A stretch of DNA of 64,000 bases from Candidatus Parcubacteria bacterium. GTDB lineage: Bacteria; Patescibacteriota; Minisyncoccia; Phycocordibacterales; UBA2100. The DNA is taken from contig QZJK01000011.1 of the NCBI GenBank assembly GCA_003599295.1, positions 13,372 through 77,371 on the forward strand. Reading direction: 5' to 3'. The notes below the pieces were generated by a model. It was not told the origin of the DNA. It did not search any database and saw only the letters and a program-made list of their open reading frames with translations. Positions 15,576 through 35,305 of the stretch are shown here, piece after piece (the first letter of the stretch is position 1; the number at the start of each line of letters is the position of its first letter). The position numbers and the translations under genes are program-made.

Positions 15576-15576
15576 C

Positions 15577-15916: not shown

Positions 15917-15973
15917 GGTTGTTCCTTGCGATTTTTTCTTGCGGTGCAAGAAAAAATCAACTATTATTGACTT

Positions 15974-16045
15974 AGCGGGGTGGAGCAGTAGTAGCTCGCA
16001 AGGCTCATAACCTTGAGGTCGCAGGTGCAAGTCCTGCCCCCGCAA
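15974..16045 (+). tRNA. tRNA-Met, anticodon CAT, initiator-like (fMet).
   Basis: aGCGGGGTGGAGCAGTAGTAGCTCGCAAGGCTCATAACCTTGAGGTCGCAGGTGCAAGTCCTGCCCCCGCAA is near-identical in blocks to E. coli tRNA-fMet (GGGGTGGAGCAG, GGCTCATAACC). The 1:72 pair is unpaired (A:A) and A11:U24 is present. There are only 2 G:C pairs at 30-31 rather than 3. Confidence 0.7.
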
Positions 16046-16217
16046 CAAAAATGTAGAGATAGAAAACTTCCGCAAGTTTATTTTTGATGCGGGGACAGGA
16101 CTGGGAGAGGGTCGGAGAACGGGAGTTTTCTGTGAAGGAGAGCAGTGAGCGGAGCGAGCGTTGAGAACCGTGGGTTCTCAAAGAGGAGCGGAGCGACGAG
16201 TCTAGCCCCCCGCAACA
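16046..16217 (+). repeat. tRNA-trailer repeat element C, downstream of tRNA-fMet. It ends in an 11-nt direct repeat of the tRNA 3' end (cccccgcaaca).
   Basis: Inverted copy of the tRNA 3' end tgcggggacaggact at 16088-16102. Then a GGGAGAGGGTCGGAGAAC block, gagcggagcgagcg and the perfect hairpin ttgagaacc-gtg-ggttctcaa (16161-16181). Direct repeat at 16207-16217. Confidence 0.5.
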
Positions 16218-16221
16218 AGCA

Positions 16222-16938
16222 TCATTGAATGTAGCCGAACTCGCGGAACACTTTTTCGTAGAGGCCGATAACACGCCGAGCTTCGCGCTGATTCAGCGCA
16301 TGTTCGGTGCCATCGTGTGCGATGCGATTCCGTATTTTGTGCGCCTCCCACGCGGCATCGATGGAGTTAAAACTTGCACGGTTTGCTTGCTTCATTTTCT
16401 CCGCCATTGTCTCGCCTTTCAGACCCTGCATATCGAGAAGCTCATTCAGCATGATATCCGCCTCAAGAATGGCGAGGCGCCACCCATGCTCCGCGCCGCC
16501 GCGTGCCTGCTCCAATACCCTCGCCCAGCGAAGCTGGGTTCTCGGAATATCTTTCGAGGCGACCGGTCGTTGTGCGGCCGCAAGCATTTTTCTCTCATGA
16601 CGGCGGAGGAAATATACGCGCGCTCCGCAGTAGGCGGCAACGGCGATGAACGGAAGGCTTACCGCAACGGAAAGGAGCACGAATACGTACCATCCTTGCG
16701 CTATCGCACTATACGTTTCTGGCCCCGACACGCTTTCTAAAAACACGGGAAAATTCGAGGCGCTTAACGGCCACGCGAGCGGACGGACTGCTTCTACGGC
16801 CGGCTCCGCCGCAGGACCTGCGTTATTTATGGAATTGAATATGGTCGCGATGACACTCGGCACCCAATTGAACACGACGTCGCCGAAAAATCCGAACGTA
16901 TCCGACAGCGATTCACCGAGCGTTGGTTCCCCACCCAT
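16222..16938 (-). CDS. Hypothetical membrane protein.
   Basis: 238-aa ORF with hydrophobic segments (WYVFVLLSVAVSLPFIAVAAY) and no recognisable motif. Confidence 0.5.
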   Translation of the reverse strand: MGGEPTLGESLSDTFGFFGDVVFNWVPSVIATIFNSINNAGPAAEPAVEAVRPLAWPLSASNFPVFLESVSGPETYSAIAQGWYVFVLLSVAVSLPFIAVAAYCGARVYFLRRHERKMLAAAQRPVASKDIPRTQLRWARVLEQARGGAEHGWRLAILEADIMLNELLDMQGLKGETMAEKMKQANRASFNSIDAAWEAHKIRNRIAHDGTEHALNQREARRVIGLYEKVFREFGYIQ

Positions 16939-20744: not shown

Positions 20745-22175
20745 TTAGTACCGAAGTTCAACTGACCGCTGCAGTGTGCGCGGATTCGTCGAGATAGTGG
20801 CGCAATTCGTACTGAATCCATCCGCGCGAACGGTCGTCCGAACGGCTTGGCTCGCGCCGCTTCGAGTCTTCTCGACAGAGACGTCGACGCAGTACCCGTT
20901 CGGTTCGAACTGGAACGTCTGCGGATTGCCGTAGCTTGTAAACGGGGAGATATTCAAAGCTTCACCGTCGCATGTGGCTGACACTGGTCCTGTGCCCCCA
21001 CTACCTCCACCACCGTCCGCTCCAGCGGGCGTATATGTAATAACGATTATTCCTCCAGCTCCCGCACCTGCGCTCGATGCATCACCTCCTTTGCCGCCTC
21101 CACCTGCTCCATATGACCCACCGGCTCCGCCGCGGCCCTCGTCGCCGCCTCCTGCGCCGCCACCACCTGCACCTTGCGCGCCCCATTCAATACCACTGCC
21201 ACCATTTCCTCCGGTGCCCGGATTTCCGAATCCGCCGCCACCGCCGCCACCGCCGTTGGTACCGCTTTGGCCGGGATCTCCAGAAGAACCTCCCGCGCCA
21301 CCACCTGAACCGGATGAGTTATTTCCTCCTCTGCCACCTGTTTTTCCTGAAGCATTTGCTCCTGCCGTTCCGCCGCCACTGCCACCGCCGCCACCACCCG
21401 CTTCATTTCCTGTACCAGCGCTCCCATTGCCACCGTTCCTTCCGGCGCCATTCGGCCCGGCAGCGCCACCGCCTCCGCCACCGCCGGATACATCGCCGCT
21501 GCCTGAACTTCCCCCACTCCCACCCGCAAATTTCGTCGTGCCAACGCCAGATGTCGGCCCTCCTGCTCCACCAACGTTTCCGTTCCCCGCGCTTCCCCCA
21601 TTCGCACACACTGTTGAATCGGCACAACTTGTGCCATTGAAATACGTATCGCCGCCGCTTCCTCCTTGCCCGCCGCCAGAACCGACGGAATAACCAATGG
21701 AACTCCCGGGCGTGAGATTGACATTCGTTACTTTAGAATACGCGCCGCCACCGCCACCGCCCGTTGGAGAATTGCCGCCGCCGCTATCACCGCCTCCTCC
21801 GCCACCGATGACCTCTATCGAATTGTTGGAATCATTCCAATCGGCGGGGACTGTCCACGAACTGCCCGACGTGCGTACGATGGTGATCTCCGCTCCTCCG
21901 CCACCGCCGCCACCGCCTGCTGCTGCCGGTCCGAATGCTTGATGTCGAAAATCCCAATAGAGAGCGCATTCGGCACCGGTATCTGCCGCATAGAATGCAA
22001 ATTGCGAATCGCGTCCTATTGAAGAGAGCGTGAGCTCCTTTTGCGCGACACCGAAAATCGAGGCGCCCAGCGCAAGCACGATTGACGCAACGAGGGCCGC
22101 CAAAAGAAGCGTAAAGCCGCGCTCTCCGCTTCGCTTCTCTGTCATCTTGTTTATGTATTGAAACATACTCGTCAT
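20745..22175 (-). CDS. Giant glycine-rich type IV pilin-like protein. It has the prepilin N-terminal cleavage/methylation motif.
   Basis: Leader plus G|FTLLLAALVASIVLALG. About 60% of the residues are Gly or Ser (poly-G tracts GGGGGGGG). The C-terminal motif is GIIVITYTP. The start overlaps the upstream stop (ATGA). Confidence 0.7.
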   Translation of the reverse strand: MTSMFQYINKMTEKRSGERGFTLLLAALVASIVLALGASIFGVAQKELTLSSIGRDSQFAFYAADTGAECALYWDFRHQAFGPAAAGGGGGGGGAEITIVRTSGSSWTVPADWNDSNNSIEVIGGGGGGDSGGGNSPTGGGGGGAYSKVTNVNLTPGSSIGYSVGSGGGQGGSGGDTYFNGTSCADSTVCANGGSAGNGNVGGAGGPTSGVGTTKFAGGSGGSSGSGDVSGGGGGGGAAGPNGAGRNGGNGSAGTGNEAGGGGGGSGGGTAGANASGKTGGRGGNNSSGSGGGAGGSSGDPGQSGTNGGGGGGGGFGNPGTGGNGGSGIEWGAQGAGGGGAGGGDEGRGGAGGSYGAGGGGKGGDASSAGAGAGGIIVITYTPAGADGGGGSGGTGPVSATCDGEALNISPFTSYGNPQTFQFEPNGYCVDVSVEKTRSGASQAVRTTVRADGFSTNCATISTNPRTLQRSVELRY

Positions 22176-23338
22176 TCCCAGGTTATTTCTACACGGCCAG
22201 GTGCACCCGCGCCTCCAGGACCGCCCCCTGTGCCTCCGAGGCCTCCGCCTCCGACAACGACCGTCATTTGAGAACCGGCGCTTAGGCTTCCGGCAGAGTA
22301 CGTTCTGCTCACGTATCCTCCGCTTCCACCGCCTCCGCCGTGGATCGTTCCTGAACCTTCGTCGCCGCCACCGCCGCCGGCACCGGGTGCGCTCCCAGTC
22401 GAGCCGGCTGTATTGTTGCCCCCCACGCCACCAGCGCCTCCGTCTCCGGGTGCACTTCCGCCTGCGCCGCCAGCGGCTGACGTCGTGTTTATGCCGGAAT
22501 TTCCGGGAGTGTTAACCGTCCCGCCTGTAGCAGTCCCGCCAGCACCTCCTTGGCCGCCGCCGGAGTATCCGCCTCTGCCGCCTTGACCACCGCCCGCTGT
22601 CCGCGTAGCGCCAGCGACTGTTATCGATGTGGCGCCACCAGGGTCTCCATCTCCCGCGGAGCCGCTTGCTTCCGAGCCACCGCCCGCGCCGCCGCCCCAA
22701 AGCTTCACGACGAGGCTCGTCGCATACTCGGGCACCAAGAACGTGTATTGGCCGGGAACGGAGAACGTAATCGCGTTTCCAGATGCTGTATCGTCGCCTC
22801 CACCACCGGACACGGAAGAGTCCGCTATCCAACGGTAGAGATTCTCCGATATCGTGAATGTGCGTGTCTGGAATGAACCGGAGCGCCAAGAAACGGTGAC
22901 CGACACCCGCACTTCATCGTCATTGCCCGACACGGGTTCCGCGCGCACCGTGCGCGTGAAGCGTGTAGCGACCCACGGCGACCCGTTCTCGTATCCATAG
23001 AGTTCCCCGTCCGTTTTAAGAGGCGGACACGTCACCGGACACTGCGTCATGCTGCCATTCCGGGTATCAACGGTGAATGGCTGGCCGGTGATGGAGGGAA
23101 TGCCGGTCAGAAGGTCCACTGAAGCACCCAGTGCATTCTGAAGAATATTCCCATCGCGCACATTGCGAACGGTTTCAACAGCTTCCTGCGCAAGATGGAA
23201 TGCCGTTATCTGGTCTCTCGCATAGTACGCGGCCGAAAGACTGCGCGCCGTAAGCGTCATCGGCGCGACGACTGCGACCGTAAGGAGCGAGACCGCCACC
23301 AATGTTTCTATGAGTGTGAAGCCTTTTTTCATGGTCAT
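22172..23338 (-). CDS. Giant glycine-rich type IV pilin-like protein.
   Basis: MTMKKG|FTLIETLVAVSLL prepilin motif. C-terminal region SLVVKLWGGGAGGG...GAPGRVEITWE. ATGA overlap with the upstream pilin gene. Confidence 0.7.
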   Translation of the reverse strand: MTMKKGFTLIETLVAVSLLTVAVVAPMTLTARSLSAAYYARDQITAFHLAQEAVETVRNVRDGNILQNALGASVDLLTGIPSITGQPFTVDTRNGSMTQCPVTCPPLKTDGELYGYENGSPWVATRFTRTVRAEPVSGNDDEVRVSVTVSWRSGSFQTRTFTISENLYRWIADSSVSGGGGDDTASGNAITFSVPGQYTFLVPEYATSLVVKLWGGGAGGGSEASGSAGDGDPGGATSITVAGATRTAGGGQGGRGGYSGGGQGGAGGTATGGTVNTPGNSGINTTSAAGGAGGSAPGDGGAGGVGGNNTAGSTGSAPGAGGGGGDEGSGTIHGGGGGSGGYVSRTYSAGSLSAGSQMTVVVGGGGLGGTGGGPGGAGAPGRVEITWE

Positions 23339-23901
23339 AGGTCAAGGGCGCGCTGGACGGCGGTCGCTTGGATGTGGAACGTGGTGCGCGTTTTTACCTT
23401 GTCCGCGCCCGCGGTCCCTTTGATGGAAATGACCACTTTCGGCTGGCTCGTGTCGCCCGGCGTCGTGCCGATGACGTAGAATTTCATGCTGTCGATAGTG
23501 ACGGACGGTGAAGTAATGGCGATCGAATTTTGACCGGAATTCTCCGATTTATAAATGCGTTTGGTCGACGCATCGTAGAGGTATACCCATTGGTCGCCTG
23601 CATCACCTCTGTCTCCCCCGAATGCCTCGAATGCGAGCACGGTGTCGCCGTTCCCGCAATCGCGCGCCAGAGAATACTCTCCTCCACCGCAATGGTAGAC
23701 GCTCCCCATGCGAAGTGCGCGCACCATGCTGTCGAGTGCAATATTCAAATTGTTCATGACGGAATGAAGCGCCTGAGTTTTCCGATTCGCATCAACGAGC
23801 GAAAGAAGGGCCGTGACGGAAACGAGCATGACGACAGCGAAGAGCGCCGTCGAAACTATCATTTCAATGAGCGTAAATCCTTTATCTCCTTTCATGCTCA
23901 T
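23335..23901 (-). CDS. Type IV pilin/pseudopilin-like protein.
   Basis: MSMKGDKG|FTLIEMIVSTALFAVV prepilin motif. Confidence 0.75.
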   Translation of the reverse strand: MSMKGDKGFTLIEMIVSTALFAVVMLVSVTALLSLVDANRKTQALHSVMNNLNIALDSMVRALRMGSVYHCGGGEYSLARDCGNGDTVLAFEAFGGDRGDAGDQWVYLYDASTKRIYKSENSGQNSIAITSPSVTIDSMKFYVIGTTPGDTSQPKVVISIKGTAGADKVKTRTTFHIQATAVQRALDL

Positions 23902-23904
23902 ACA

Positions 23905-24558
23905 TTATTGAACGGATATCTGTCCCGTGGACTCGACAATGACGCTTGCCTGGTCGCCCCGCGGCGATTCGAGGAGGACGCGTCCGCGTTCGTAGAGGGC
24001 TGCCGGATTCGCGACACCAGAGATGCCGTTCGCGCTGATGAAGGCATCTGGCTCCGGCCGTCGGAACATCAGGTCAAGCCTATTTAATCCGCATGTTTCC
24101 GTGGTGCTTCCCGGCGCAGTTACGCAAATATCGGCGGTATGAAATCCTCTCTGCATCGTTATCGACTCGACGAGTTCGTTCTGATTCGATTGGTATATGC
24201 CGTCTCCCGTCGCGGAAGGAAATGTGTCCGCGAACAAGACGTACACCGTGGGAGAATTGATGCTGAAATGCATGCCATATCCTGCGCTGAACTCGCTCTC
24301 GCCAAAACGGCGCACTGCTATCCCGTACACTTGCGCCTTCCGTACGGACAACGCGACATCATAGGCAAGGTTCTCAAGTAAAATCGCGCCTCCGAATCGG
24401 GCGTTATTCGCGAGCATGATACCGGTAATGAGGACAAGTATCCCGGTGACCACGATAAGCTCCGCCAAGGTGAAGCCCCGTTCTTTCCGCCGGCTTGGTT
24501 TCGTTCCATGCGAAAAACCATTAGCGGTCTCTGGATTCGCGGAATGTACTCGGCTCAT
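23905..24558 (-). CDS. Type IV pilin/pseudopilin-like protein.
   Basis: RKERG|FTLAELIVVTGILVLITGI prepilin motif. ATG 24558 overlaps the pilD stop (ATGA coupling); the ORF track start at 24606 would give an implausibly long leader. Confidence 0.7.
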   Translation of the reverse strand: MSRVHSANPETANGFSHGTKPSRRKERGFTLAELIVVTGILVLITGIMLANNARFGGAILLENLAYDVALSVRKAQVYGIAVRRFGESEFSAGYGMHFSINSPTVYVLFADTFPSATGDGIYQSNQNELVESITMQRGFHTADICVTAPGSTTETCGLNRLDLMFRRPEPDAFISANGISGVANPAALYERGRVLLESPRGDQASVIVESTGQISVQ

Positions 24559-25364
24559 AGGGGCAGGGGAAGCGCGTATAGGTGCGCGAACCACACGATT
24601 AGGCAACTCGCGACGAGAAATGGCCCGAACGGCACCTCGCTTTTCATTGTAAATCGCATTCGCCCATCACGGAATGCGGGTATGGGAATAAGTGTCCGCA
24701 CGAATCCCTGCACTGCATCGCTAGACATCGCAAGAAGCGGCAAGGAGACGGCTGCGCCCAGAATGAATGCGAAGAGGACCGCTATGAGGCCGCCCTCAAT
24801 GCCGAGGAGCCATCCTATCGAGAGCGCCAGCTTCGAATCGCCGAGGCCCATCCATTTCCCGTCCGATACGAGCCACAGAAGAAAAAGTGGGAGCGCAGTC
24901 AAAGGCCCCGCGAGTACCGCAAAAGCGTATGAAGCGCCTGTGCCGACGACCCCAAAGAGAGCCGCGGAGAGCGTAAGTATGCCGCACATAAGCACCCATC
25001 GGTCGGGAATGATGGTCGTGCGGAGGTCATGCACGGCGATAGCGAGGAGAAGTGCCGCGATGGGGAGTGCCACGAGTTTGAACGGTAGCTCTATGGGAGC
25101 GGCACCGATGAGCGCGAACAATACCGCAGTAGAGAGTTCAACAAGCGGATACTGGAGGGAAATACGCGCTTTGCAATCTCGACAGCGGCCGCCGAGGAGC
25201 ACCCATGAAAGAACGGGTACGAGATCATGTGACCGAATGCGCGCCCTGCATGAGGGACAGACGCTTCGACCGGAGATAGTTTCTTTCCCTTCTCGCAGAA
25301 CGAGAACGTTCAAGAAACTCCCGACGATGAGGCCGAACGAACCGAATACAAGGACGAGTGTCAT
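24555..25364 (-). CDS. pilD: Prepilin peptidase (A24 family).
   Basis: N-terminal Cys-rich zinc motif CPSC...CRDC. Multiple TM helices and a conserved Asp-containing region (LGDSKLALSIG). Confidence 0.85.
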   Translation of the reverse strand: MTLVLVFGSFGLIVGSFLNVLVLREGKETISGRSVCPSCRARIRSHDLVPVLSWVLLGGRCRDCKARISLQYPLVELSTAVLFALIGAAPIELPFKLVALPIAALLLAIAVHDLRTTIIPDRWVLMCGILTLSAALFGVVGTGASYAFAVLAGPLTALPLFLLWLVSDGKWMGLGDSKLALSIGWLLGIEGGLIAVLFAFILGAAVSLPLLAMSSDAVQGFVRTLIPIPAFRDGRMRFTMKSEVPFGPFLVASCLIVWFAHLYALPLPL

Positions 25365-25382
25365 TAGGAAGGATTATCGCAC

Positions 25383-25407
25383 AAAACCCCGCACGAGGCG
25401 GGGTTTT
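25383..25407 (-). terminator. Rho-independent terminator after pilA: aaaaccccgc-acgag-gcggggtttt. It is bidirectionally symmetric.
   Basis: Stem plus U-run, read directly. Confidence 0.6.
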
Positions 25408-25431
25408 GATGCCGATTGTTTTGCTCTACGA

Positions 25432-25929
25432 TTATGGCTTCACGTCGTAGACAGGATCGGTGCCGGCAAAGTCAGCACCGCTTCCCGTACAGATACCGGT
25501 GCTTGCCGCGGCATCCGCGTCCGAATCAAGCGCCGCGTTGTTGGTGATCTCGAGCGTCGCTCCGAGGTGATACGAGGAGCAGGTCGTTCCGGAGCCGAGT
25601 GCCGCGTACGAGTAGGGGCTTCCTGTCGACGGATCCTCGGGGATAGCCGAGATGAACCCGCCCGTTACGAGAGGACTGCTTGCCGTCGTTCCGATGGTTG
25701 TGGGGTATCCCGTCGTCGGGTTCGAGTCGTAATACAGTTCAAGCGCAAGCTGGAGCTGCTTGACATCGGAGACGCGTCGCGCGTCGCGGCCCTTCTGGCG
25801 AGCGCTATTGAGGGACGCCAACACGATAGACGAGAGAATACCGATTATCGCGATCACGACGAGAAGTTCGATCAGGGTGAATCCTTTCGATCCCCGTATA
25901 CCGTAACCGCGCATTGAAATAAGTGGCAT
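25432..25929 (-). CDS. pilA: Type IV major pilin.
   Basis: Leader...GSKG|FTLIELLVVIAIIGILSSIVLASLNSAR is the classic type IVa pilin N-terminus. A start at M25914 is also possible. It is followed by a strong terminator, as expected for a highly expressed pilin. Confidence 0.85.
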   Translation of the reverse strand: MPLISMRGYGIRGSKGFTLIELLVVIAIIGILSSIVLASLNSARQKGRDARRVSDVKQLQLALELYYDSNPTTGYPTTIGTTASSPLVTGGFISAIPEDPSTGSPYSYAALGSGTTCSSYHLGATLEITNNAALDSDADAAASTGICTGSGADFAGTDPVYDVKP

Positions 25930-26060
25930 GAGTCTTATATGCTATTAGTTGATAATTAAGGTGTACCCGTATTGTACCCCCTCTCTTCTTCGAGGGGAGA
26001 CGACCTGTGGATAGTTCATTTTTCTTGAAAAAGCCCCAGATTTCAGGGATTTTTAATCCA

Positions 26061-27272
26061 TTAGAATCCAGAGGCGATATTATAAATAGGGATGAGGACC
26101 GAGGCGAGAAGGACGGCAACGCCGAGCGCAAGCGCGACTATCATGATGGGCTCGATGAGGGAGACCAGCGTGTCAACCGAGTGATTCACCTCACGGCGGT
26201 AGAATTTGCCCATGGTGTCGAGCACGTGGCTCGTATTACCCGTCTCCTCACCTATCTTCAACATTGCGACGACGATACCCGGAACCTCGGGGTGTTTCCG
26301 CAAGGCCTCGGAGACCGGAAGTCCCGATTTTACGTCAGTCGCAGCCGCCTTAAGTATTTTTTCATAGGTGACGTCACCGACGACATTCGCGGTTATCTCG
26401 AGGCTGTTCAGCATTTGGATGCCGCTTCGGAGCATGGTGGAAAGGTTGTCCGCGATGCGGGAAAGGTAGAGCTTTTTGTAAATGCCTCCGATGACAGGGA
26501 CTTGCATGCGCGCTCGCGAATACGTCTCCTTCCCCGCCGGTGTCGTCCCGAAGCGTACGAGAAAGATGCCGCTCCCGACCAAGAGGATGCTTAAGAGAAG
26601 AATGTGCGTAGAGAGGAACTCGCTGATGCCTATCACGATGCGCGTATATATCGGTATGTCCTGGCCCACTTCGTTCAAAATGTCCGCGAGATTCGGGATG
26701 ACGACCGTCAGCATGATGCCCATGACGACGACGAACGTAAGCATGATAAAAGCCGGGTAGATAAGAGCATTCCGCGCTTTCTGTGTTATTTCATAGTTCC
26801 TGTCGAGATAATCCGAGAGGAACGTAAAGGTCTCGTCCAGTTTTCCGGACTCTTCGCCGACGCGCACCATGTTGACATAGAATGGAGAGAACACGTCCGG
26901 ATGCCTCGAGAGTGCGTTCGATATCGTGCTGCCGTTCTGGATGTCATTCGCTATCTCGAGCAGTTTTGCCCCTAGTTTCGGCGTTCGCGCTTCGGCAGCA
27001 AGAAGACGGAACGCGCGAAGCGCGGATACTTGTGCTTCGAAAAGCGTCGTCATTTGCCGCGAAATAATGACGATGTCAGCGTTCGTGACGCGGTCGAACA
27101 AGCTGATGCGACTCAAAAGCGCCGAGGATTTCTCTTCGACCGGATTAATAGCCGATATCACCAGACTGCGCCGCTGGAGCGCCGCTATCGCCACGTCGAT
27201 ATTAATGGCATCAATGGTCCCCTGACGCTCGGCGCCTTCGGCATCGATGGCTGTATAGGAGAACAAACTCAT
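26061..27272 (-). CDS. pilC: Type IV pilus platform protein (GspF family).
   Basis: Two repeated GspF domains with three TM segments, 403 aa. Confidence 0.9.
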   Translation of the reverse strand: MSLFSYTAIDAEGAERQGTIDAINIDVAIAALQRRSLVISAINPVEEKSSALLSRISLFDRVTNADIVIISRQMTTLFEAQVSALRAFRLLAAEARTPKLGAKLLEIANDIQNGSTISNALSRHPDVFSPFYVNMVRVGEESGKLDETFTFLSDYLDRNYEITQKARNALIYPAFIMLTFVVVMGIMLTVVIPNLADILNEVGQDIPIYTRIVIGISEFLSTHILLLSILLVGSGIFLVRFGTTPAGKETYSRARMQVPVIGGIYKKLYLSRIADNLSTMLRSGIQMLNSLEITANVVGDVTYEKILKAAATDVKSGLPVSEALRKHPEVPGIVVAMLKIGEETGNTSHVLDTMGKFYRREVNHSVDTLVSLIEPIMIVALALGVAVLLASVLIPIYNIASGF

Positions 27273-27281
27273 AGCCAGTCC

Positions 27282-28346
27282 CTAGAGAAGCCGCTGAAGC
27301 ACATTTGGATTCAGCGAGTATTGGTACGCGCTCTCGACGGTAATCTCGCCGCGCGCGACCAATTCCGCGAGCGAGCGGTTCATGTCTATCATGCCCTCCC
27401 CGGAACCGGTCTCGATGACCGTGTTTATTTCGTGCGTCCGCTTCTCGCGGATGAGATTCGCGACCGCCTTGTTGTTGACGAGGAGCTCATATGTCGGAAT
27501 GAGGCCGCCGGAGACGCGCGGAATAAGGCGCTGACTGAAGATGCCGGCCATGGAAGCCGCGAGCTGGAGCCGTATCTGGTCCTGCTGCGATGCGGGGAAG
27601 GTGTCGATGATGCGGTCGATGGTCTGTGCGGCATTGTTCGTATGAAGCGTCGAGAAGACGAGGTGTCCGGTCTCCGCAGCTGTGACTGCGGCGGCCATCG
27701 TCTCCGGTCCACGCATCTCGCCAACGAGAATGACGTCTACGTCTTGGCGAAAAGCCGATTGGAGCGCAGTCGCGAAATCTTTCGTGTCAATGCGCACTTC
27801 GCGCTGGTCTATGAGCGACTGCTTCGGCTGATAGACGTATTCCACCGGGTCCTCGATGGTCACGATATGTTCCATTCTCTCGACATTGATGAGTTCTATG
27901 AGGGCGGCGAGGGTCGTGGTCTTTCCTTGCCCCACCGGCCCGACCACCAAGAAGAATCCTTGGGATTTGCGGGCGAAGCTGGTCAGGACGTCCGGCAAAT
28001 TCAATTCCTGTACCGTACGGATGGTTTTTGGTATCAGACGAAGCGCGATACCGACGCTTCCTCTCTGAAAGAACGCATTGCCTCGGAATCGGGCGTTTTC
28101 ATCGCTTTCATAGGCAAAGTCCACTTCCTGCTCGACAAGAAAATGCTCCATTTGCTTATCCGTGAGGAGAGCTTTCAAGAAACCCATCGTGTCATCGGGC
28201 GTCAGAGGCGGCTCCTTCAGCATGGGCGTGAGGGCGCCGGCGACGCGGATGGTCGGATGCGCGTCTGTTGAGAAGTGGAGGTCGCTTCCGCCCTCGTGCT
28301 CAAGGACGTTTATGTATTTTTTGAGCGTTGCCGCGTAGTCTGTCAT
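27282..28346 (-). CDS. pilT: Twitching-motility retraction ATPase.
   Basis: Walker A GPVGQGKTTT, Asp box, Walker B VILVGEMR, His box TLHTN. 354 aa, with no N-terminal extension; this is PilT/PilU-like rather than PilB. Confidence 0.9.
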   Translation of the reverse strand: MTDYAATLKKYINVLEHEGGSDLHFSTDAHPTIRVAGALTPMLKEPPLTPDDTMGFLKALLTDKQMEHFLVEQEVDFAYESDENARFRGNAFFQRGSVGIALRLIPKTIRTVQELNLPDVLTSFARKSQGFFLVVGPVGQGKTTTLAALIELINVERMEHIVTIEDPVEYVYQPKQSLIDQREVRIDTKDFATALQSAFRQDVDVILVGEMRGPETMAAAVTAAETGHLVFSTLHTNNAAQTIDRIIDTFPASQQDQIRLQLAASMAGIFSQRLIPRVSGGLIPTYELLVNNKAVANLIREKRTHEINTVIETGSGEGMIDMNRSLAELVARGEITVESAYQYSLNPNVLQRLL

Positions 28347-28463
28347 GATATGTTCAATGAACGCCCGAGTGAAGCGTACACCTGTGATTTTAACACCTTT
28401 CTTTTCAATGCCGGCTTGAAACTGTGAGTATCCGGCAAGAGTCGGCGGTCGTCCGAAGGCGCG

Positions 28464-28892
28464 TTACTTTTTCTTCCCGTGCTTCTTTACCTCTTCCTTC
28501 ACCGCTTCCACGACCTCCGAAGGTATCATGCTGGCTTTCACCACATAGCGATCGACGCCTAAGCCCTCTGCTTTTGCTTTCTCGGCGTCATTCCCCTGAT
28601 TCGTGAGCGCGATCTTTACCGCGTCTGGAGCGAGGTGTTCCGCGTCAAGCGTCTGGAGGAACGAGAACCCGTCATGCTCCGGCATCACGATGTCGAACAC
28701 GATAGCTTCCGCCGCAAACCCGTCGCGCAAGAATCGAAGGGCGTCCGCTACCGATAGACACGCCTGTACATTGAAGCCTGCGCCGGCGAATTTCATGCTG
28801 TACATATCCACGAGGAATTTGTCGTCGTCGATCAGCAGTATGTTCCCCGACGCTCCTTTGCCTTTCTCGCCTTCCGTTTGGTCATTCATCAT
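28464..28892 (-). CDS. Stand-alone CheY-like response-regulator receiver domain, embedded between pilB and pilT.
   Basis: ILLIDDD..., phospho-acceptor context FDIVMPEHDG, and the conserved T/K positions (KIALTNQG). Confidence 0.8.
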   Translation of the reverse strand: MMNDQTEGEKGKGASGNILLIDDDKFLVDMYSMKFAGAGFNVQACLSVADALRFLRDGFAAEAIVFDIVMPEHDGFSFLQTLDAEHLAPDAVKIALTNQGNDAEKAKAEGLGVDRYVVKASMIPSEVVEAVKEEVKKHGKKK

Positions 28893-28981
28893 AGGTAATC
28901 TGCTTATTGATACAATTATTCTACTCTACTACATATCTGTGCGAGCCCCCGGGGACTGCCAGGGAAGATGTTTATACGTCC

Positions 28982-30736
28982 CTACGAAGCCGGTTTTTCT
29001 TTCTTTTCCGGCGCAGATTCGGCAACTACAGGCATTTCCTCTTCCTGAAACAGGAGTTTCGATGAAAGAGCGTTCAATTCGGAAAAAGGAATGGCTTTTG
29101 AGAACGCTTTCTGCATCGCATCTTCCTGCATCGTAAGCATGCCTTGCCCGCGAGCAGTCTCCCATAGCTTGGATTCAACTGGGTTCTCAAGGATGATGCG
29201 CTCGATCTCCGGAGACATTTCAAGCACTTCGAATACGGCCATGCGGCCGCGAAGCCCTGTGGGCGATGCCGAGGTGCGCATGGGTTCCCACGCACTCTTC
29301 GGTATCTTGAAGCGGTGCTCGGCGGGGAGCGTTGAAAGCTGCTCCTCGATATTCTTTCTATCGCTCGCGGATATCTCTATTTCCTGTGTGCTTCCTTCGA
29401 CAAGCGTGCGCACGAGGCGCTGTGCCATCGAAATGACGAGGACAGGCGGAATGAGATACGGCTCGACGCCCATGTCGATGAGGCGCGGAATGGTACCGAT
29501 TGCGTCGTTCGTGTGGATGGTCGAAAGTACGAGGTGGCCAGTCAGTGCCGCTTGTATCGCGAGCTTTGCGGTTTCGCCGTCACGGATCTCTCCCACCATG
29601 ATGACATCCGGGTCCTGGCGAAGCGTTGTTCGGAGTCCCGTTGCGAACGAGTACCCGATCTCGGGATGCACCTGCGATTGCGTGACGCCTTCGACGAAAT
29701 ACTCGACCGGGTCTTCAAGCGAGAGCACGTTCTTTTTTTCGCGGTCGACTTCCGAAAGCATCGAGTACAAGGTCGTCGATTTTCCCGAACCTGTAGGACC
29801 GGAAATGAGAACCAGCCCGTGCGGACGGTTGATCGCTTTCCGCACCAAATCGAGATTGCGCGGCGTCAACCCGATCTGATCGAGCGGGATGAATCCTTGG
29901 TCACGATCGAGAATACGAATAACGACTTTTTCCCCGTAGTACGAGGGAAAGGTCGAGACACGGAAGTCTATCTGCCGATTTTCGATGGACGCCGAGAAAC
30001 GGCCGTCCTGCGGTTTTCTTTGCTCATCGAGGCGGATGGAGGCGAGCACTTTTATACGCGCGACGAGCGAGCGGTGCGTCGCGAGCGGGAGGATAACACT
30101 CGTGTGAAGGTCGCCGTCCACGCGGTAGCGCACGCGCACTCCTGCGAATTGCGGCTCGATGTGGATGTCGGAAGCTTTTCCATCGATGGCGTACCGAAGT
30201 ATCGTCGACACTATCTTGATGGTCGGTGCATCTTCCTGTACGTTCCTCGTCCGCTGGCCGATCTCCGACGGACGCTCAATGGTTGGGTCATCGAGATCGA
30301 GCGGCGCCATTTCGGATTCGACAGGCCGCTCTTTCTGCTCGGTCGCGAGGTCGACGATGGCGCGGTCCACTTCCCCGCCGAGGCCGCGGTACATTCCGAG
30401 TATTCTTTCAAAATCCTCTTTTGATATTCGAAATACTTTAAACGGCATGCCTGTCGAGCGCGCGATAAAATTCAGCGCGTCGAAGCCCTGTATATCTTCA
30501 GGGTCAACCATGCCGATCTCGAGGACGCCGTCCCCGACCGCGAGCGGTGCGAGCTGATAATGCTTTGCGGATTCCTCGGGAATGTAGCGGAGGACATCGT
30601 ACGGCACCTTGGTTTCCCCTAGCTCTCTCATCGGCACTTCAAGGCCTCCACTCCCCTGGCCCGCTGCCTGCGAACTCGTAGAGAGATTTATTTGAGGACT
30701 TCCTGTTTGATTTGTTTGCGGCATACGAAGTATCAA
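28982..30736 (-). CDS. pilB: Type IV pilus assembly ATPase (GspE family).
   Basis: N1/N2 domains, Walker A GPTGSGKSTT, Asp box and His box TIHTN. The C-terminal tetra-Cys is not obvious. There is an unusual about 40-aa acidic/Lys-rich C-terminal tail. Confidence 0.9.
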   Translation of the reverse strand: MILRMPQTNQTGSPQINLSTSSQAAGQGSGGLEVPMRELGETKVPYDVLRYIPEESAKHYQLAPLAVGDGVLEIGMVDPEDIQGFDALNFIARSTGMPFKVFRISKEDFERILGMYRGLGGEVDRAIVDLATEQKERPVESEMAPLDLDDPTIERPSEIGQRTRNVQEDAPTIKIVSTILRYAIDGKASDIHIEPQFAGVRVRYRVDGDLHTSVILPLATHRSLVARIKVLASIRLDEQRKPQDGRFSASIENRQIDFRVSTFPSYYGEKVVIRILDRDQGFIPLDQIGLTPRNLDLVRKAINRPHGLVLISGPTGSGKSTTLYSMLSEVDREKKNVLSLEDPVEYFVEGVTQSQVHPEIGYSFATGLRTTLRQDPDVIMVGEIRDGETAKLAIQAALTGHLVLSTIHTNDAIGTIPRLIDMGVEPYLIPPVLVISMAQRLVRTLVEGSTQEIEISASDRKNIEEQLSTLPAEHRFKIPKSAWEPMRTSASPTGLRGRMAVFEVLEMSPEIERIILENPVESKLWETARGQGMLTMQEDAMQKAFSKAIPFSELNALSSKLLFQEEEMPVVAESAPEKKEKPAS

Positions 30737-30811
30737 TGGTCTACGCTACGCTCGAAAGGACGAAGGCCATTTTCCACGTCCTCCGAAGCACGGCGTTCTT
30801 CATTCACGGTC

Positions 30812-31141
30812 TCAAATCTCGCCCCCTTCTCCTGCGTCAAAACCCCGAGGGGCGAACGGGTTCCGCCGTCCGACTGGTTCCGGGACTATCTGTGTTCCAA
30901 AATCCCGGAGCGTGCCAAAGGTCGGATCGGAGAATATCGTTCCGGAAAGTGAGACTGCCCGCAGGGTCAAAAGCGTATTGACGATGCCTGCCTCGGCAGT
31001 CCCCACTTCGCCCACTACTTCTGTCGTGAGGAGGGCGTCATCGGGAGTGCTGTCTCCGGAGAACGCATACCACGCACCGCCGAGCGCGACCGCGCCGATG
31101 ATGACGATTGCGAGTGCGTTGCGCGAGAGGAATGACATCAT
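30812..31141 (-). CDS. Small TM-anchored protein at the PilP position in the pilMNO(P) gene order. This is an inference.
   Basis: N-terminal TM (ALAIVIIGAVALGGAWYAF). The start overlaps the pilO stop. Confidence 0.4.
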   Translation of the reverse strand: MMSFLSRNALAIVIIGAVALGGAWYAFSGDSTPDDALLTTEVVGEVGTAEAGIVNTLLTLRAVSLSGTIFSDPTFGTLRDFGTQIVPEPVGRRNPFAPRGFDAGEGGEI

Positions 31142-31143
31142 AC

Positions 31144-31713
31144 TTACTTCAACCAATACGTTCTAATAGTAATGTCGAAACTGTAGAGGGGCTCTCCTGT
31201 GTCGTCCGCATCCTCGGGCTGAAGCGAGAGGGAGACGAGATCGACGATGCGAAGGCTCGATTCGAGATTTTCCAAGAATTGCACGAAGACCGGATAGGTC
31301 GCGACGGTCGAAAACTGGAGCGTCAGTGAATCGAACTTTTGCCGCGCGGCACCGATGGCCCCCACGACGGAATTATCGCCGGTCTCGCTCGCGGGATTCG
31401 AGATGAGCACGTTCTGGAGCGCCATGCCATGAGCCCCGGCAAGATTATCAAGATCAAGAACAAGCCGCACGTTATCCACGTGGTCCGGAAGGAGTTTCTG
31501 GAGGCGCGCGAGGTCGGCCGGATTAAATGCGTTGTAGCGCGACAAAAGCGATTGCTTCAATTGCTGCAGCTCCGCGGCCCTATCGAGAGCCTCGTCGTAT
31601 TGTGCTATCTCCGCCTTTTTCGCTTGCACGGTCTGATACGTGGGCTGCGTGTACATGAAGAAGACCCCGAATGCGACCGCGAGACCAAGTGCCGAAAAAA
31701 TTAGTTTGAACAT
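31144..31713 (-). CDS. pilO: Type IV pilus assembly protein PilO-like.
   Basis: N-terminal TM followed by a coiled-coil (AEIAQYDEALDRAAELQQLKQ), then the core domain. Gene order is pilM-N-O. Confidence 0.7.
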   Translation of the reverse strand: MFKLIFSALGLAVAFGVFFMYTQPTYQTVQAKKAEIAQYDEALDRAAELQQLKQSLLSRYNAFNPADLARLQKLLPDHVDNVRLVLDLDNLAGAHGMALQNVLISNPASETGDNSVVGAIGAARQKFDSLTLQFSTVATYPVFVQFLENLESSLRIVDLVSLSLQPEDADDTGEPLYSFDITIRTYWLK

Positions 31714-31716
31714 AGA

Positions 31717-32427
31717 TTATTCCGTGGGCTGGCTTCCTTCCGAGGCGGTATTCTCCTCAGGGACTCCGTTGAACGGCGAGAGCGAGGATTGCACCTCCGA
31801 GGTCGGATTCGTGAGTTCCTGCGGAAGGCTCTGTGTCGCCCCGCGCACGATGGCGAGGTAATTGATGGCCGAAGGATTCAAAAGCGCCGAAAGGCTGAAG
31901 TGGACGCCGTCCGTTTGGCGATTGATGTTCGAAAAGATGGGACTCGTCACCATGCCGACCTTACTGAAAAGATCCGCCTGGAGCGCTATCGAGTTGACGC
32001 TATCGGCAATGCCGTCCATCTGTATCGTCATGTGCTGCGGATCCGAGCCATCGAAATCCAATGATATGAATGAAATGTTGCTTATCGTTGTCTGCTCAAG
32101 CATGCGGAAAAATGCGGAGGGCGCGATGTGCTTTCCCAAGACCTCGTTCGCGACCAACATGCGGTCATCGAGCCGCGTCAGCTCTTGGATGAGCGCGGGC
32201 TCGAATGCGGCGCTCGCGCGCCCGAGCTGTTCTATTTTCGAAGCAGCGCTTGCATGCAGATACTGATCATAGAGGAGCACTCCGACTCCGAGGACTCCGG
32301 ACACGACGAAAAGAACGACCGAGGCAAGCGCGGCGAGGTCCAAGAGACCGTTCTTCGCCGCTTTGCGGACGGAGCCGGCTTGTACCGTGTCTTTCGGGAT
32401 GAATGAGGGCGGTGTTGTTGTTTCCAT
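31717..32427 (-). CDS. pilN: Type IV pilus assembly protein PilN-like.
   Basis: Single N-terminal TM (LAALASVVLFVVSGVLGVGVLLY) and a periplasmic domain. Position is between pilM and pilO. Confidence 0.65.
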   Translation of the reverse strand: METTTPPSFIPKDTVQAGSVRKAAKNGLLDLAALASVVLFVVSGVLGVGVLLYDQYLHASAASKIEQLGRASAAFEPALIQELTRLDDRMLVANEVLGKHIAPSAFFRMLEQTTISNISFISLDFDGSDPQHMTIQMDGIADSVNSIALQADLFSKVGMVTSPIFSNINRQTDGVHFSLSALLNPSAINYLAIVRGATQSLPQELTNPTSEVQSSLSPFNGVPEENTASEGSQPTE

Positions 32428-32459
32428 AGTTCTTCTTCTGCCGCTCCCCGGTCGCGCGT

Positions 32460-33608
32460 TTACGATTCTTTGAGTTTCCGCAGAACAAGCCCGACCGCTA
32501 CCGCAAATCCTGGGCCTATCTCGCGAAGCACGTCTCCGAGGAACGCAGGCGCTTCCGTTCTTGCGAACGGGTTCGCTATTTCAACGTCCGCCTGCAGGGA
32601 GGTCTTTGCTTCTTCAAAAAGTCCTGGCAAAGACGCACCGCCGCCCGTGAAGACGACGCGCGATACATTCTTATTGTATCGCTGCCCGTAGCTCAATAGT
32701 ACCCGATTCACCTCGCTAAAAATACGCGTGAGTGTTGATAACAGCGCGGTCTTGATGCGTTCGTTCTCATCGGTAGAGTACGCTGTCGTGTCTTTAAGGC
32801 CGCGTTCACGCTTGACGCGCTCCGCCTTGTCGAATTCCCAGTTCAAGGAACGGCCGAGGACCTCCGTCATGTGCTGGCCGCCGACCGTGAGGAGATGTGT
32901 GAGGCGCACGACGCCGCGCTCGACGACATAGAGCTTGGTCGTCGCGGCCCCGAGATCAACCACCAAGACCGGCGCGATGCCGTGTCCGAGCGATGAACGG
33001 ACGACGCTGAATATCTCGATCTCATAGAATTCGACAGTGATACCCGCTTCCGCCGCAAGCGCTTGATAGTTCTCTATCGTAGCGTTATGAATGGCGACAA
33101 GGAGCACTTCTTGCCCGCGCGGTTTGCTTGACTCCTTTTCCATCCTGTCGAACGCGCTTTGCTCCCCCTCCTCCTCTGGTATCAAGAACCAGTCAAGAGC
33201 GACTTCGGTGATTGGCACCGGAATGTATTTCCGAGCCTCGATAGGAACGATGCGCTTTAAAGATTCCTTATCGACTTTCGGCAGCTCAACGACTGAGACT
33301 AAACTCGATGCGAACGGGATGGAAATACCGCCCTTTCGCGCCGTCACGTTCGCTTCTTTCATGAGGTCGGTCAACGCTTCGGCCGTTTTCTCCGACGAAA
33401 GCTTCACGGCTTTTCCGATGGGCTGCCCCCCGTAAGGACCGAGTGCTATTTCGCCATACGTCTCAAGCACCGCTGCGCCGCGCGACGCGCGAAGCTGCAC
33501 GACTTTTATGGAACTTGCGCCGATGTCGACGCCGAGAATGCTTCCCTCGGCGCCTTTGCCGAGAACTCCCGAGAGTGCTTTCCCAATACCCCCAAAAGAA
33601 AAAGCCAT
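32460..33608 (-). CDS. pilM: Type IV pilus assembly protein PilM (actin-like ATPase fold).
   Basis: ILGVDIGASSIKVVQL and VVDLGAATTKL are actin/FtsA-like phosphate motifs. Confidence 0.85.
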   Translation of the reverse strand: MAFSFGGIGKALSGVLGKGAEGSILGVDIGASSIKVVQLRASRGAAVLETYGEIALGPYGGQPIGKAVKLSSEKTAEALTDLMKEANVTARKGGISIPFASSLVSVVELPKVDKESLKRIVPIEARKYIPVPITEVALDWFLIPEEEGEQSAFDRMEKESSKPRGQEVLLVAIHNATIENYQALAAEAGITVEFYEIEIFSVVRSSLGHGIAPVLVVDLGAATTKLYVVERGVVRLTHLLTVGGQHMTEVLGRSLNWEFDKAERVKRERGLKDTTAYSTDENERIKTALLSTLTRIFSEVNRVLLSYGQRYNKNVSRVVFTGGGASLPGLFEEAKTSLQADVEIANPFARTEAPAFLGDVLREIGPGFAVAVGLVLRKLKES

Positions 33609-33994: not shown

Positions 33995-34642
33995 ATGAAT
34001 GTCCGCGCGTTCCTGAACACCATTCTCGATAGCGTCCTCCCGCGGCGCGAGCGGGATATGCGCACAAAACGGCGTTCACTCCAGGATATTCCGCTCGCTC
34101 CAACGACGCACGAACTGCTCGGCACGCGCATACTGACCATCATGGATTATCGGGAACGGGCGGTCGAAGAACTCTTGCAGAGTTTGAAATACGATGCGTC
34201 GGGACACGCCGCAACATTGTGTGCAGAGGCCCTTGAGGATTTCTTGCGGGAAGAGGTGTCTTCCGTTCGTGCATTCTCGACGAAGCGTATTCTCCTTGTG
34301 CCTGTGCCGCTTCATAAGGTGCGGGAGCGAGAGCGTGGATTCAATCAGATAGAAGTCATTCTTAAGCACCTGCCCAAAGAATTTCACGACGGCCGTGCCG
34401 CGGCTGTCGTTCCCGCGCTTTTACGCACCCGCCCGACGAAACAGCAAACGCATCTATCGCGCAATGAGCGCTTAAAGAACGTCGCGGGCGCATTCGAACT
34501 TTCCGACGCAAGCGTGCTTCACGATGCACACGTTGTTTTAATAGACGACGTCGTGACGACGGGTGCAACTCTGACCGAAGCGGCGAAGCCGCTCATGAAG
34601 CGCGGGATTTCTGTGAACCTGCTTGCACTCGCGCGGGCGTGA
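33995..34642 (+). CDS. comFC: ComF-family phosphoribosyltransferase-domain competence protein.
   Basis: LVPVPLHKVRERERGFNQ and the PRTase motif VVLIDDVVTTGATL. Confidence 0.8.
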   Translation: MNVRAFLNTILDSVLPRRERDMRTKRRSLQDIPLAPTTHELLGTRILTIMDYRERAVEELLQSLKYDASGHAATLCAEALEDFLREEVSSVRAFSTKRILLVPVPLHKVRERERGFNQIEVILKHLPKEFHDGRAAAVVPALLRTRPTKQQTHLSRNERLKNVAGAFELSDASVLHDAHVVLIDDVVTTGATLTEAAKPLMKRGISVNLLALARA

Positions 34643-34684: not shown

Positions 34685-34773
34685 GGAGAGGTGGCCGAGT
34701 GGTCGAAGGCGGCACGGTGCTAACGTGTTAGGCGGGTAAAACTGTCTCGAGGGTTCGAATCCCTCCCTCTCCG
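34685..34773 (+). tRNA. tRNA-Ser, anticodon GCT, with long variable arm.
   Basis: GGAGAGGTGGCCGAGTGGTCGAAGGCGGCACGGTGCTAACGTGTTAGGCGGGTAAAACTGTCTCGAGGGTTCGAATCCCTCCCTCTCCG. Confidence 0.8.
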
Positions 34774-34951
34774 CAGATTTGAACGCAGTGAGAATACTGC
34801 GGAGAGGAGCAAGCGCTTCGCGCTTGCGTGGAGGGATTCGAAAGTGAGCGCGGGGTGCCTGTTCAGTAGGACGGGTCGCGCGAGCAGGCCCGAGCGGAGC
34901 GAGGAGCGACGGCGACGAGCGAGCTCTTGGGAGCATCCCTCCCTCTCCGCA
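34774..34951 (+). repeat. tRNA-trailer repeat element D, downstream of tRNA-Ser(GCT). It ends in a 17-nt direct repeat of the tRNA 3' end (atccctccctctccgca).
   Basis: Direct repeat at 34759-34775 and 34935-34951. Inverted copies tgcggagaggag and cgtggagggattcgaa, the hairpin caagcgcttcgcgcttg, and the gagcggagcgaggagcgacg block shared with element C. Confidence 0.5.
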
Positions 34952-34972
34952 AAAATCTATATAATAGAAGGT

Positions 34973-35305
34973 ATGACAAGAAAAGCTGGGGTTGTTCTTT
35001 TTTATGCACTTCCCATCGTTCTGATGATAAGCCTCATCCCGCTGATTCAGAATGATTATGTCCTTGCGGGCGTATACGGTGCCTGCATCGTTGCCCTGCT
35101 TTTCATAAAACGCGAGAAAAATGATCTCATCGCGCTCGCATTCGGCATTATCGGTATCACTATCGCCGAGTCCTTTTTCATCAGCACAGGGGTGGAAACG
35201 TTCGCGCGGCAGAGCTTTCTCGGCATGATGCCGCTCTGGCTCCCCTTCCTGTGGGGCTATGCGTTCGTGACCATAAAGCGCACGCTCCGCGTATTAGACC
35301 ATTGA
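34973..35305 (+). CDS. Hypothetical three-TM membrane protein.
   Basis: RBS gaagg before ATG 34973. The longer ORF from 34844 would run through the repeat element. Confidence 0.45.
   Translation: MTRKAGVVLFYALPIVLMISLIPLIQNDYVLAGVYGACIVALLFIKREKNDLIALAFGIIGITIAESFFISTGVETFARQSFLGMMPLWLPFLWGYAFVTIKRTLRVLDH

Follow-up and report, generated by a model that had tools for sequence, protein, structure and literature searches.

A candidate insertion cassette without cargo at the 3' end of a Patescibacteria tRNA-Ser gene

Integrative elements that enter the 3' ends of transfer RNA (tRNA) or transfer-messenger RNA (tmRNA) genes, such as the tycheposons of Prochlorococcus, stand between a full tRNA and, at their other edge, a partial tRNA that covers the T-loop to the 3' end; they supply the gene end themselves, stack at a single tRNA, and are matched by empty sites in relatives (bioRxiv 10.1101/2020.12.28.424599). 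Cis-mobilizable elements (CIMEs) are bounded by att-like repeats, lack a recombinase gene, and accrete in tandem at the site that insertion regenerates (PMC5704250). Element D, the subject of this analysis, is a far smaller structure that lies behind the tRNA-Ser(GCT) gene in a 64,000-nucleotide (nt) stretch of DNA, hereafter the window, from Candidatus Parcubacteria bacterium (Patescibacteriota; assembly GCA_003599295.1, contig QZJK01000011.1, positions 13,372 to 77,371 of the forward strand). Of the features that define an integrative element, it has repeats of a tRNA segment and empty sites in relatives, and it encodes no recombinase.

The balance of evidence tips toward reading Element D as an insertion cassette without cargo, situated in the 3' end of tRNA-Ser(GCT), that brought a replacement gene end with it and displaced the original. 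This reading follows the same logic as that of integrative elements restoring the tRNA genes they interrupt, here in miniature and without a recombinase gene.

The tRNA-Ser(GCT) locus and its relatives

The tRNA-Ser(GCT) gene occupies positions 34685-34774 of the window on the plus strand, where ARAGORN and Rfam agree on it (54.7 bits with the Rfam tRNA model), and its 3' end is duplicated. The 17-mer ATCCCTCCCTCTCCGCA has two exact copies in the window: a proximal one at 34759-34775, here called T, which is the working tRNA 3' end and extends from T-loop A59 to the CA after the discriminator, and a distal one at 34935-34951, here called DR. The count stays at two when two mismatches are tolerated, 0.02 copies are expected from shuffled sequence, and none of 100 shuffles gave two. 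Between the repeats lies an inverted copy (IC) of the same gene end in two parts, of which 34797-34807 is an 11-nt exact reverse complement of 34766-34776 (the acceptor 3' strand plus GCAG) and 34830-34842 a 13-nt exact reverse complement of 34754-34766 (T-loop and T-stem), both found by self-BLAST. Joined together, the two segments make a perfect reverse complement of 34754-34776, broken by a 23-nt insertion that holds the 7-bp hairpin caagcgcttcgcgcttg at 34810-34826 (CAAGCGC-TTC-GCGCTTG).

Read on the plus strand, the element begins beyond T with a spacer, GATTTGAACGCAGTGAGAATA, at 34776-34796, which resembles the spacer TGAACGTAGTGAATGTA of an element behind tRNA-Thr in the same window and the GAACGAAGTGAG-type spacers of other genomes. 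The first part of the inverted copy (IC-a, 34797-34809), the hairpin, and the second part (IC-b, 34827-34842) follow; IC-b, which copies the T-loop and the T-stem 3' strand, ends opposite tRNA position ~53, as it does across the family described below. A structured core at 34846-34932 then leads to DR. Because of the direct repeat, the 176-nt insert can be written equally well as 34776-34951 or as 34759-34934. It contains no gene-like open reading frame (ORF), neither ARAGORN nor Rfam finds a second tRNA in 34775-34951, and no promoter or terminator is predicted in it, the spacer at 34776-34796 included. A tandem tRNA duplication or tRNA pseudogene can be set aside, given that the repeat covers no more than the last 17 nt, the copies inside the element are in inverted orientation, and there is no second tRNA body.

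Most of this anatomy had been proposed in a first-pass annotation made from the sequence alone, which described the perfect repeat of the tRNA-Ser(GCT) 3' end, the inverted acceptor and T-arm copies between the repeats, a GC hairpin, and limits of 34774 and 34951; the repeat, the copies and the hairpin are borne out, and the limits are essentially right. So too is its broader view of a discrete element that is bounded by a duplicated tRNA 3' end, holds inverted copies, and has further family copies in the window. Neither the 178 bp without its duplicated end nor a longer segmental duplication unrelated to the tRNA was found.

Eighteen metagenome loci from relatives were recruited through ComF-like proteins related to the product of the gene at 33995-34642, upstream of tRNA-Ser; L-numbers here and below denote loci from other genomes. 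In L124 (ComF 77% identical) and L126 (56%), a tRNA-Ser(GCT) with an identical 3' end is followed by unrelated sequence, and each locus has a single copy of the 17-mer, no IC, and no match to R1 or R2, the models of the two core types described below. Both are empty sites. In L120 (ComF 91%) the same 17-nt repeat encloses a different interior, in the order T, a 163-nt type B element, a second repeat (DR2), a terminator, an IC-like sequence GGATGGGATTCGA, 1.48 kb of further DNA, a third repeat (DR3, TTCGAATCCCTCCCTCTCCGCA), and the orthologue of the gene that starts at 34973 in the window. The 1.48-kb insertion (1529-3007 of that locus) has two ORFs without a Pfam match, of 79 and 301 amino acids (aa). 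Between the window and L120 loci the flanks are 90% identical and the element interiors 68%. The L120 core is 80% identical to the element of L089, which lies behind tRNA-Arg(CCT) in Kaiserbacteria, as compared to 66% with the core of Element D. The triple repeat, the cargo and the unlike core suggest that the tRNA-Ser site has been hit repeatedly and is probably a hot spot, and that the architecture may carry protein cargo. This comparison with the tRNA-Ser locus of relatives, as envisaged at the first pass, favours insertion.

The gene beyond DR (34973-35305, plus strand) is host flank outside the element and encodes a membrane protein of 110 aa that matches DUF2878 weakly. Its start at 34973, with a ribosome binding site, had been put forward at the first pass and is plausible, as AGAAGG at 34966-34971 precedes the ATG. 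A perfect TATAAT at 34960-34965 lies just past DR, 7 nt 5' of this ATG, and a consensus scan gives it no matching -35. Because IC follows T throughout the family, and because the orthologous flank in L120 follows the outermost repeat, DR is interpreted as the displaced original gene end and T as the one supplied with the element. Element D stands at the edge of a type IV pilus/competence cluster (23335-33608 and 33995-34642) with genes for a pseudopilin, PilC-like T2SSF, PilB-like T2SSE, PilO, PilM and the ComF-like phosphoribosyltransferase, a neighbourhood that would be relevant if cassettes spread via natural transformation.

A shared layout with different cores

Element D is not alone in its architecture. 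On the strand of the target end, the order T (the gene end), spacer, IC, core and DR (the second gene-end copy) is common to four tRNA genes of the window (Ser-GCT, Thr-CGT, Asp and Met), out of nine that the window holds, and to more than 100 Patescibacteria loci. The spacer is often an intrinsic terminator, and T and IC can form a long hairpin because the one is an inverted copy of the other. The three other window copies share a core that is here called type A, whose order is GGGTCGG, hairpin 1, CCGTGGAGGAAGG, an optional hairpin, and hairpin 2 (GAAAACCGTGGGTTTTC); judged by eye, they are ~70-80% alike. R1, a covariance model of this core built from 44 copies with compensatory changes in 7 of 13 pairs, gives 72.2 bits for the member behind tRNA-Thr(CGT) (14007-14138, minus strand), in which IC GAGCCGCCTC lies at 14108-14117, the core at 14022-14101, and a degenerate DR at ~14007-14022. 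The member behind tRNA-Asp (15164-15317, minus strand; 77.7 bits) has a hairpin spacer, IC at 15258-15270 and a core at 15188-15253, and its DR, ATCCGGTCGCTCGCGCA at 15164-15180, is a perfect 17-nt repeat in the register seen in Element D. Behind tRNA-Met (15974-16046), the plus-strand member at 16047-16218 (72.3 bits) has IC at 16088-16102 and a core at 16105-16183, then the linker GGAGCGGAGCGACGAG and a 12-nt DR, CCCCCGCAACAA, at 16207-16218.

The core of Element D is of another kind. With filters off and E up to 10, R1 has no match in 34776-34951, and the suggestion that Element D is the cleanest copy of a single element is not upheld, since it is type B with no R1 score and the other three window copies are type A (72-78 bits). 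The claim that it shares a block with another element of the window, named C at the first pass, stands in part: the 33-mer is unique in the window, and what the tRNA-Met element has in common with it is the 11-nt GAGCGGAGCGA, at 16147 and 16186. To our reading, a right-hand module, GGAGGAGCG..GCGACGA(C)G, may loosely resemble that of element C. A further match of GAGCGGAGCGA at 41951 is inside the recG coding region and was rejected as an element.

Type A is widespread. A degenerate pattern of its core, scanned over 185,579 species with one genome per species, matched at least 119 stretches. Among the matches listed, R1 confirms ~117 type A cores, labelled Patescibacteria, unclassified 'bacterium', or Bdellovibrionales (5 metagenome-assembled genomes, MAGs), and a same-strand tRNA ends 24-115 nt upstream in 74 of 122 pattern matches. 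None of 11 pattern loci with other taxon labels scored with R1, so those were chance matches. Nearly all tRNA types occur among the tRNA-linked copies, IC and DR matching their own tRNA, and the remaining pattern matches are mostly cut by the 8-kb blocks in which loci were taken or stand at protein genes. The copies labelled 'uncultured Bdellovibrionales' (L032, L052, L077, L086 and L100) are genuine type A elements at 58-75 bits, which means that the labels are in error or else that the family reaches beyond Patescibacteria.

A scan for the layout that was blind to the core covered 199 tRNAs with 350 nt downstream, in loci of the candidate phyla radiation (CPR), and found it at 60 of them, in a set enriched by the choice of loci. 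Fourteen of the 60 have no type A core, and several of these have a second core, type B, in common with Element D: a variable hairpin H1, the segment GAGNNGGGGTCGCG, and a long imperfect helix H2 capped by the conserved loop GAGCGACGGCGA, which in the window is at 34904-34915. R2, the type B model, was built from 8 copies in other genomes, excluding the window copy and L118, and has compensatory changes in 20 of 27 pairs. Its best match in the window is the core of Element D (34846-34932, plus strand), over the full length of the model, at 23.9 bits and E ~0.0013, with a runner-up of 13.7 bits, a result of modest significance. The loop GAGCGACGGCGA is exact in the window, L118, L059, L075, L018, L067, L089 and L120, has one mismatch in L027 and L094, and comes from AT-rich as well as GC-rich genomes. 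In 730 kb of CPR loci R2 finds 28 copies, some in tandem with type A elements; weaker matches, of 37-41 bits, make up a third variant, type C, and the density of types B and C is ~1 per 26 kb in the loci examined. Type B copies of different genomes are 61-82% identical, and tandem or nested arrays are present in L088, L090, L049, L050, L063, L067 and L118. Element D accordingly belongs to a superfamily as a type B member, with the T/IC/DR layout as the constant feature.

None of this corresponds to a described RNA family. In Rfam 15, with the whole window scanned, no match in the elements reaches the gathering score, and at E up to 10 on Element D and 13900-16300 there are only spurious weak matches, of which those to sX4 and permuted tmRNA reflect the tRNA itself. 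Elsewhere in the window the scan recovers a LOOT RNA (3785-3909, plus strand, 70.9 bits) and a flavin mononucleotide (FMN) riboswitch (12841-12959, minus strand, 106.5 bits). In the full-text literature searched, these elements are nowhere described. A paper on group I introns of tRNAs in Patescibacteria deals with the anticodon loop (PMC13011429). A group I or II intron was rejected for Element D, where no intron model matches and the tRNA upstream is complete without splicing.

Protein-coding genes are targets as well. Genes for ribosomal protein S9 and for L33-like and L7/L12-like proteins have the type A layout at their 3' ends, and opposite-strand genes for an EF-G-like GTPase and an RNase H-like protein have it at their 5' ends. 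The junction is always in a highly conserved motif, and the duplication extends to the end of the gene, up to ~60 nt. Ten cases are anchored in frame by a start or stop codon. The codon differences between T and DR in these are 42 synonymous and 17 non-synonymous (our own sum), or 71% synonymous, as compared to the ~40% that we estimate for neutral decay of DR beside a constrained T. On these figures purifying selection has shaped both T and DR, which at protein genes are diverged alleles, and DR has the look of a functional allele that was moved aside and not of a target-site duplication made mechanically.

The relation of the three segments to one another points the same way. At tRNAs, the core-proximal end of IC is sharply opposite position ~53, and DR begins anywhere from position 53 to 60 and ends at 73-77, at times more than 10 nt past the tRNA. 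Across the family the duplication is 9 to more than 60 nt long, and with a repeat start that varies and an end that may extend well beyond the gene, a fixed-length target-site duplication was rejected. By local alignment IC is more strongly complementary to T than to DR, and where T and DR differ it agrees with T at 75 positions and with DR at 5, a count somewhat biased by IC having been aligned to T. In L063, where a type B element stands behind a type A element, the IC of the former agrees with the DR of the latter. Since IC follows T and not DR, the T-spacer-IC hairpin is probably the maintained unit and DR a relic. A closing helix of IC with DR was tried as a universal feature and dropped, the ungapped search with G.U pairs being noisy (mean 9.3 nt, as against 7.8 in shuffles) and the pairing of IC with T strong. 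In tRNAs that encode CCA, DR lacks it, and in several tRNA copies identity extends 1-3 nt beyond the discriminator, which together argue for an event at the level of DNA, not for copying of a mature tRNA.

Two further structures of the window may be recorded. A comparable layout at tRNA 5' ends is found at 15393-15480 and 15586-15680 on the minus strand, 5' of tRNA-Asp and of tRNA-Met 15509-15585, where the tRNA's first 9-10 nt (GCGGGCGTA / GCCGGCGTA) are copied ~79 nt upstream, followed by an inverted copy, a 58-nt core and the tRNA. The two cores are 86% identical (GGAGAAAAAG, a hairpin, CTTTTTGCTCCTCAC); their pattern has two matches in the window, as against none expected, and none among 171 other loci. 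At 20745-22600 (minus strand), a gene rich in GGC/GGT-type repeats is the source of the direct-repeat families D1-D5, which are unrelated to the element.

Insertion, structured RNA or remnant

If Element D is an insertion cassette, a unit of T, spacer, IC and core would have recombined into a conserved gene within the gene-end segment, at a point between a few and a few dozen bases short of the end. The cassette's own T would then complete the gene, and the original end would be pushed downstream as DR. Repeated hits at the site so regenerated could give rise to tandem and nested arrays and provide room for larger cargo. That the event was a gain and not a loss, and that recombination was the route of entry, we infer.

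Several observations weigh against an insertion cassette. Element D and the first element of L120 share an unusual small hairpin within IC (AAGC-GAA-GCTT at the equivalent place in L120) and may be orthologous and fast-evolving, and the empty sites may reflect precise loss through recombination of T with DR in place of an absence of gain. The copies of a single genome reach 60-80% likeness and not near-identity, which speaks against a recent burst; invariant loops and junctions and compensated stems across distant lineages are the pattern of a host-useful RNA and odd for inert scars; the agreement of IC with T carries the alignment bias given above; and how a cassette gains a matching T and IC at each new target is unexplained. 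No enzyme comes to the rescue, in that clustering of 652 ORFs revealed no integrase, transposase or recombinase that recurs within 1.5 kb of ~105 cores, only the target genes S9, L13 and L17 and a small membrane protein, and the 40 window ORFs scanned include no tyrosine integrase.

Two leads to an enzyme may be recorded. A large serine recombinase with Resolvase, Recombinase and Zn_ribbon_recom domains is encoded at 5583-7295 (plus strand), 27 kb from Element D, and is a candidate for action in trans; its ORF abuts tRNA-Glu (7255-7329, minus strand) and tRNA-Ser(CGA) (7411-7498) and maybe marks the edge of an integrated island. Stand-alone GIY-YIG nuclease genes (PF01541, 79-90 aa) are present in L051, L106, L115 and L119, within ~450 nt of type A elements, where they directly adjoin the element or the tRNA that bears it; this is a lead only.

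A bolder form of the insertion reading can be entertained tentatively. Here the elements would be a class of self-contained homing cassettes not recognised before and specific to Patescibacteria, in which a structured core (A, B or C, as RNA or as folded single-stranded DNA) and the T:IC duplex direct their own insertion into the terminal conserved motifs of essential genes, a spare gene end preserves function, and the target is set by nucleic-acid pairing in place of a sequence-specific protein. Such cassettes would spread between lineages, possibly by natural transformation. A new mechanism, possibly one in which pairing sets the choice of target, has a substantial chance of being at work.

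The strongest rival, doubtful on present evidence, is that the elements are structured RNAs of use to the host. In this scenario IC pairs either with T or with a decoy, DR, and the core decides between them, so as to make a switch in the end-maturation or stability of the tRNA or mRNA, or else the product is a processed small RNA capped by a tRNA-like helix of acceptor and T-arm. The compensated stems of both core types (7/13 pairs in type A, 20/27 in type B) are what such a function predicts, as are the invariant GGGTCGG, GGAGGAAGG and AACCGTGGGTT and the presence of GAGCGACGGCGA in distant lineages. With the tRNA included, T is also predicted to pair with IC and the tRNA 5' strand with DR, at -136.8 kcal/mol (z = -5.4); the predicted RNA fold of Element D alone reaches -82.7 kcal/mol (z = -3.1). 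Read-through from the tRNA into Element D is plausible because no terminator is predicted between them. A host switch leaves unexplained, however, why the decoy at protein genes should be a diverged allele of up to 60 nt shaped by selection, why 1.5 kb of protein cargo should take the place of a core, and why the module is missing in close relatives with an identical tRNA. In many copies, moreover, an intrinsic terminator between T and IC would cut the tRNA transcript short ahead of the switch, IC and DR often pair over a few bp only, the element is antisense to its target at opposite-strand genes, and there is no Rfam match.

Which strand folds bears on this rival directly, and the signals are mixed. 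The tRNA-sense strand gives the more stable fold in 89 of 101 type A cores, and G.U pairs occur on the sense strand in 6 of the 8 type B copies of the R2 alignment, both in favour of an RNA; hairpin 2 of type A, on the other hand, shows an A.C that is conserved on the sense strand (67 of 101 copies) and equivalent to G.U on the other strand. A type A segment, GGAGGA(AGG/GAG/AAG), with counts of 61, 19 and 4, covaries with the 3' strand of hairpin 2, which suggests an alternative pairing, as in a switch. A coded peptide in type A (GGAGG, then TTG or ATG) was rejected on our reading that the frame differs among core subclasses. The mini-hairpin d(GCGAAGC) is unusually stable as DNA. Loops of the GCGAAGC or C-GAA-G type recur in the optional hairpins and linkers of type A (14045-14063 in the window; L007, L067 and L040), and the hairpin at 34810-34826 has one when read on the opposite strand. 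Such loops hint at a single-stranded DNA stage.

It is unlikely, by comparison, that Element D is an inactive scar of the CIME kind, left by an integrase-driven island or prophage that kept attL and attR and lost the rest by deletion. Direct repeats from the T-loop to the 3' end are the hallmark of tRNA integration in the tycheposon study, the tandem accretion documented for CIMEs has its counterpart here, L120 has 1.48 kb of cargo with a third repeat at the same tRNA, and a large serine recombinase adjoins two other tRNAs of the window. Scars should decay, yet the cores are conserved with covariation across the superphylum, and no integrase remnants lie near more than 100 copies. Nearly all tRNA types and several protein genes would require many integrase specificities, and we know of no ordinary attP site with a 13-23-nt inverted copy of its target. 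Viral sequence offers little more, in that among the 2.9 million viral contigs of IMG/VR the type A pattern has 2 matches, both without the middle motif, and the type B pattern 32, none of which passes R2. As neither core type is present there, a phage attP origin seems unlikely.

Template switching at a hairpin during replication or repair, which would duplicate a gene end in both orientations with neither mobility nor function, is very improbable: T, spacer and IC do make up a long quasi-palindrome, in many cases with a terminator hairpin at its centre, and the duplication runs on into the spacer in a few copies (L049, L109), but the process cannot account for identical types of conserved core, 65-90 nt long, between the copies in hundreds of independent loci and lineages, nor yield synonymous differences between T and DR, so that the conserved cores refute it as a sufficient explanation and leave it as a possible step in generating IC.

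Comparison with known mobile and structured elements

If the elements move, they represent a very compact and harmless way of invading essential genes, by means of a spare gene end instead of splicing, and would be a major unannotated component of CPR genomes. The cores are candidate new RNA or single-stranded DNA motifs with strong covariation that are not in Rfam. For annotation, the elements account for partial-tRNA repeats in CPR MAGs and for conserved genes that have truncated pseudo-starts and pseudo-ends there. The elements also mark recombination hot spots where cargo may gather, as in L120, and if it is pairing by the T:IC hairpin that sets the target, work on programmable insertion would have an interest in the principle.

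Small, non-coding, hairpin-rich, multi-copy and non-autonomous sequences are familiar from MITEs (miniature transposable elements with inverted repeats), repetitive extragenic palindromic (REP) sequences and Rickettsia palindromic elements (RPE), and the present family is similar to them in each of these respects. It differs in having no terminal inverted repeats of its own sequence, the internal inverted repeat being a copy of the target; in a flanking duplication that is variable, at 9 to more than 60 nt, and reaches the gene end; and in copies that have diverged within a genome. A MITE was rejected on two counts, as neither inverted repeats of its own ends with a fixed duplication nor near-identical copies are found.

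Homing introns and inteins also occupy the most conserved motifs of conserved genes, are patchy among relatives, and leave the gene functional. In the present elements, by contrast, there is no ribozyme or intein signature, Rfam detects no group I or II intron, function is kept by a duplicated gene end and not by splicing, and GIY-YIG genes are nearby in 4 loci only.

Folded single-strand recombination sites are exemplified by integron attC and by the attP hairpin of CTX-phi, the latter used by XerCD. As single-stranded DNA, T:IC would likewise fold into a duplex copy of the target, structure is conserved above sequence, and GCGAAGC-type mini-hairpins recur in the elements; here, however, there is no integron integrase or dif-like site, the targets are many and unrelated, and the elements are known from sequence only.

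The CIMEs are closer, in that att-like repeats bound a recombinase-less element and tandem accretion takes place at a regenerated site, seen here in L050, L063, L067, L118 and L120. CIMEs are decayed islands of several kb, with one integrase family and one target, whereas the present family has a conserved core of ~90 nt in hundreds of copies across the superphylum, with no partner element identified. Closest of all are the tycheposon-type elements, with which Element D shares a full tRNA on one side and a partial one on the other, the supply of a gene end, stacking at one tRNA, and empty sites in relatives. Unlike them, it is 176 nt long with neither an integrase nor any other gene, it has an inverted copy of the target and a core kept by covariation, and its family uses nearly every tRNA type as well as the ends of protein genes, with cores that are not in the viral contigs searched. 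Element D and its family thus differ from known tRNA-targeting elements in being miniature and recombinase-less, and in joining an inverted copy of the target to a covarying core.

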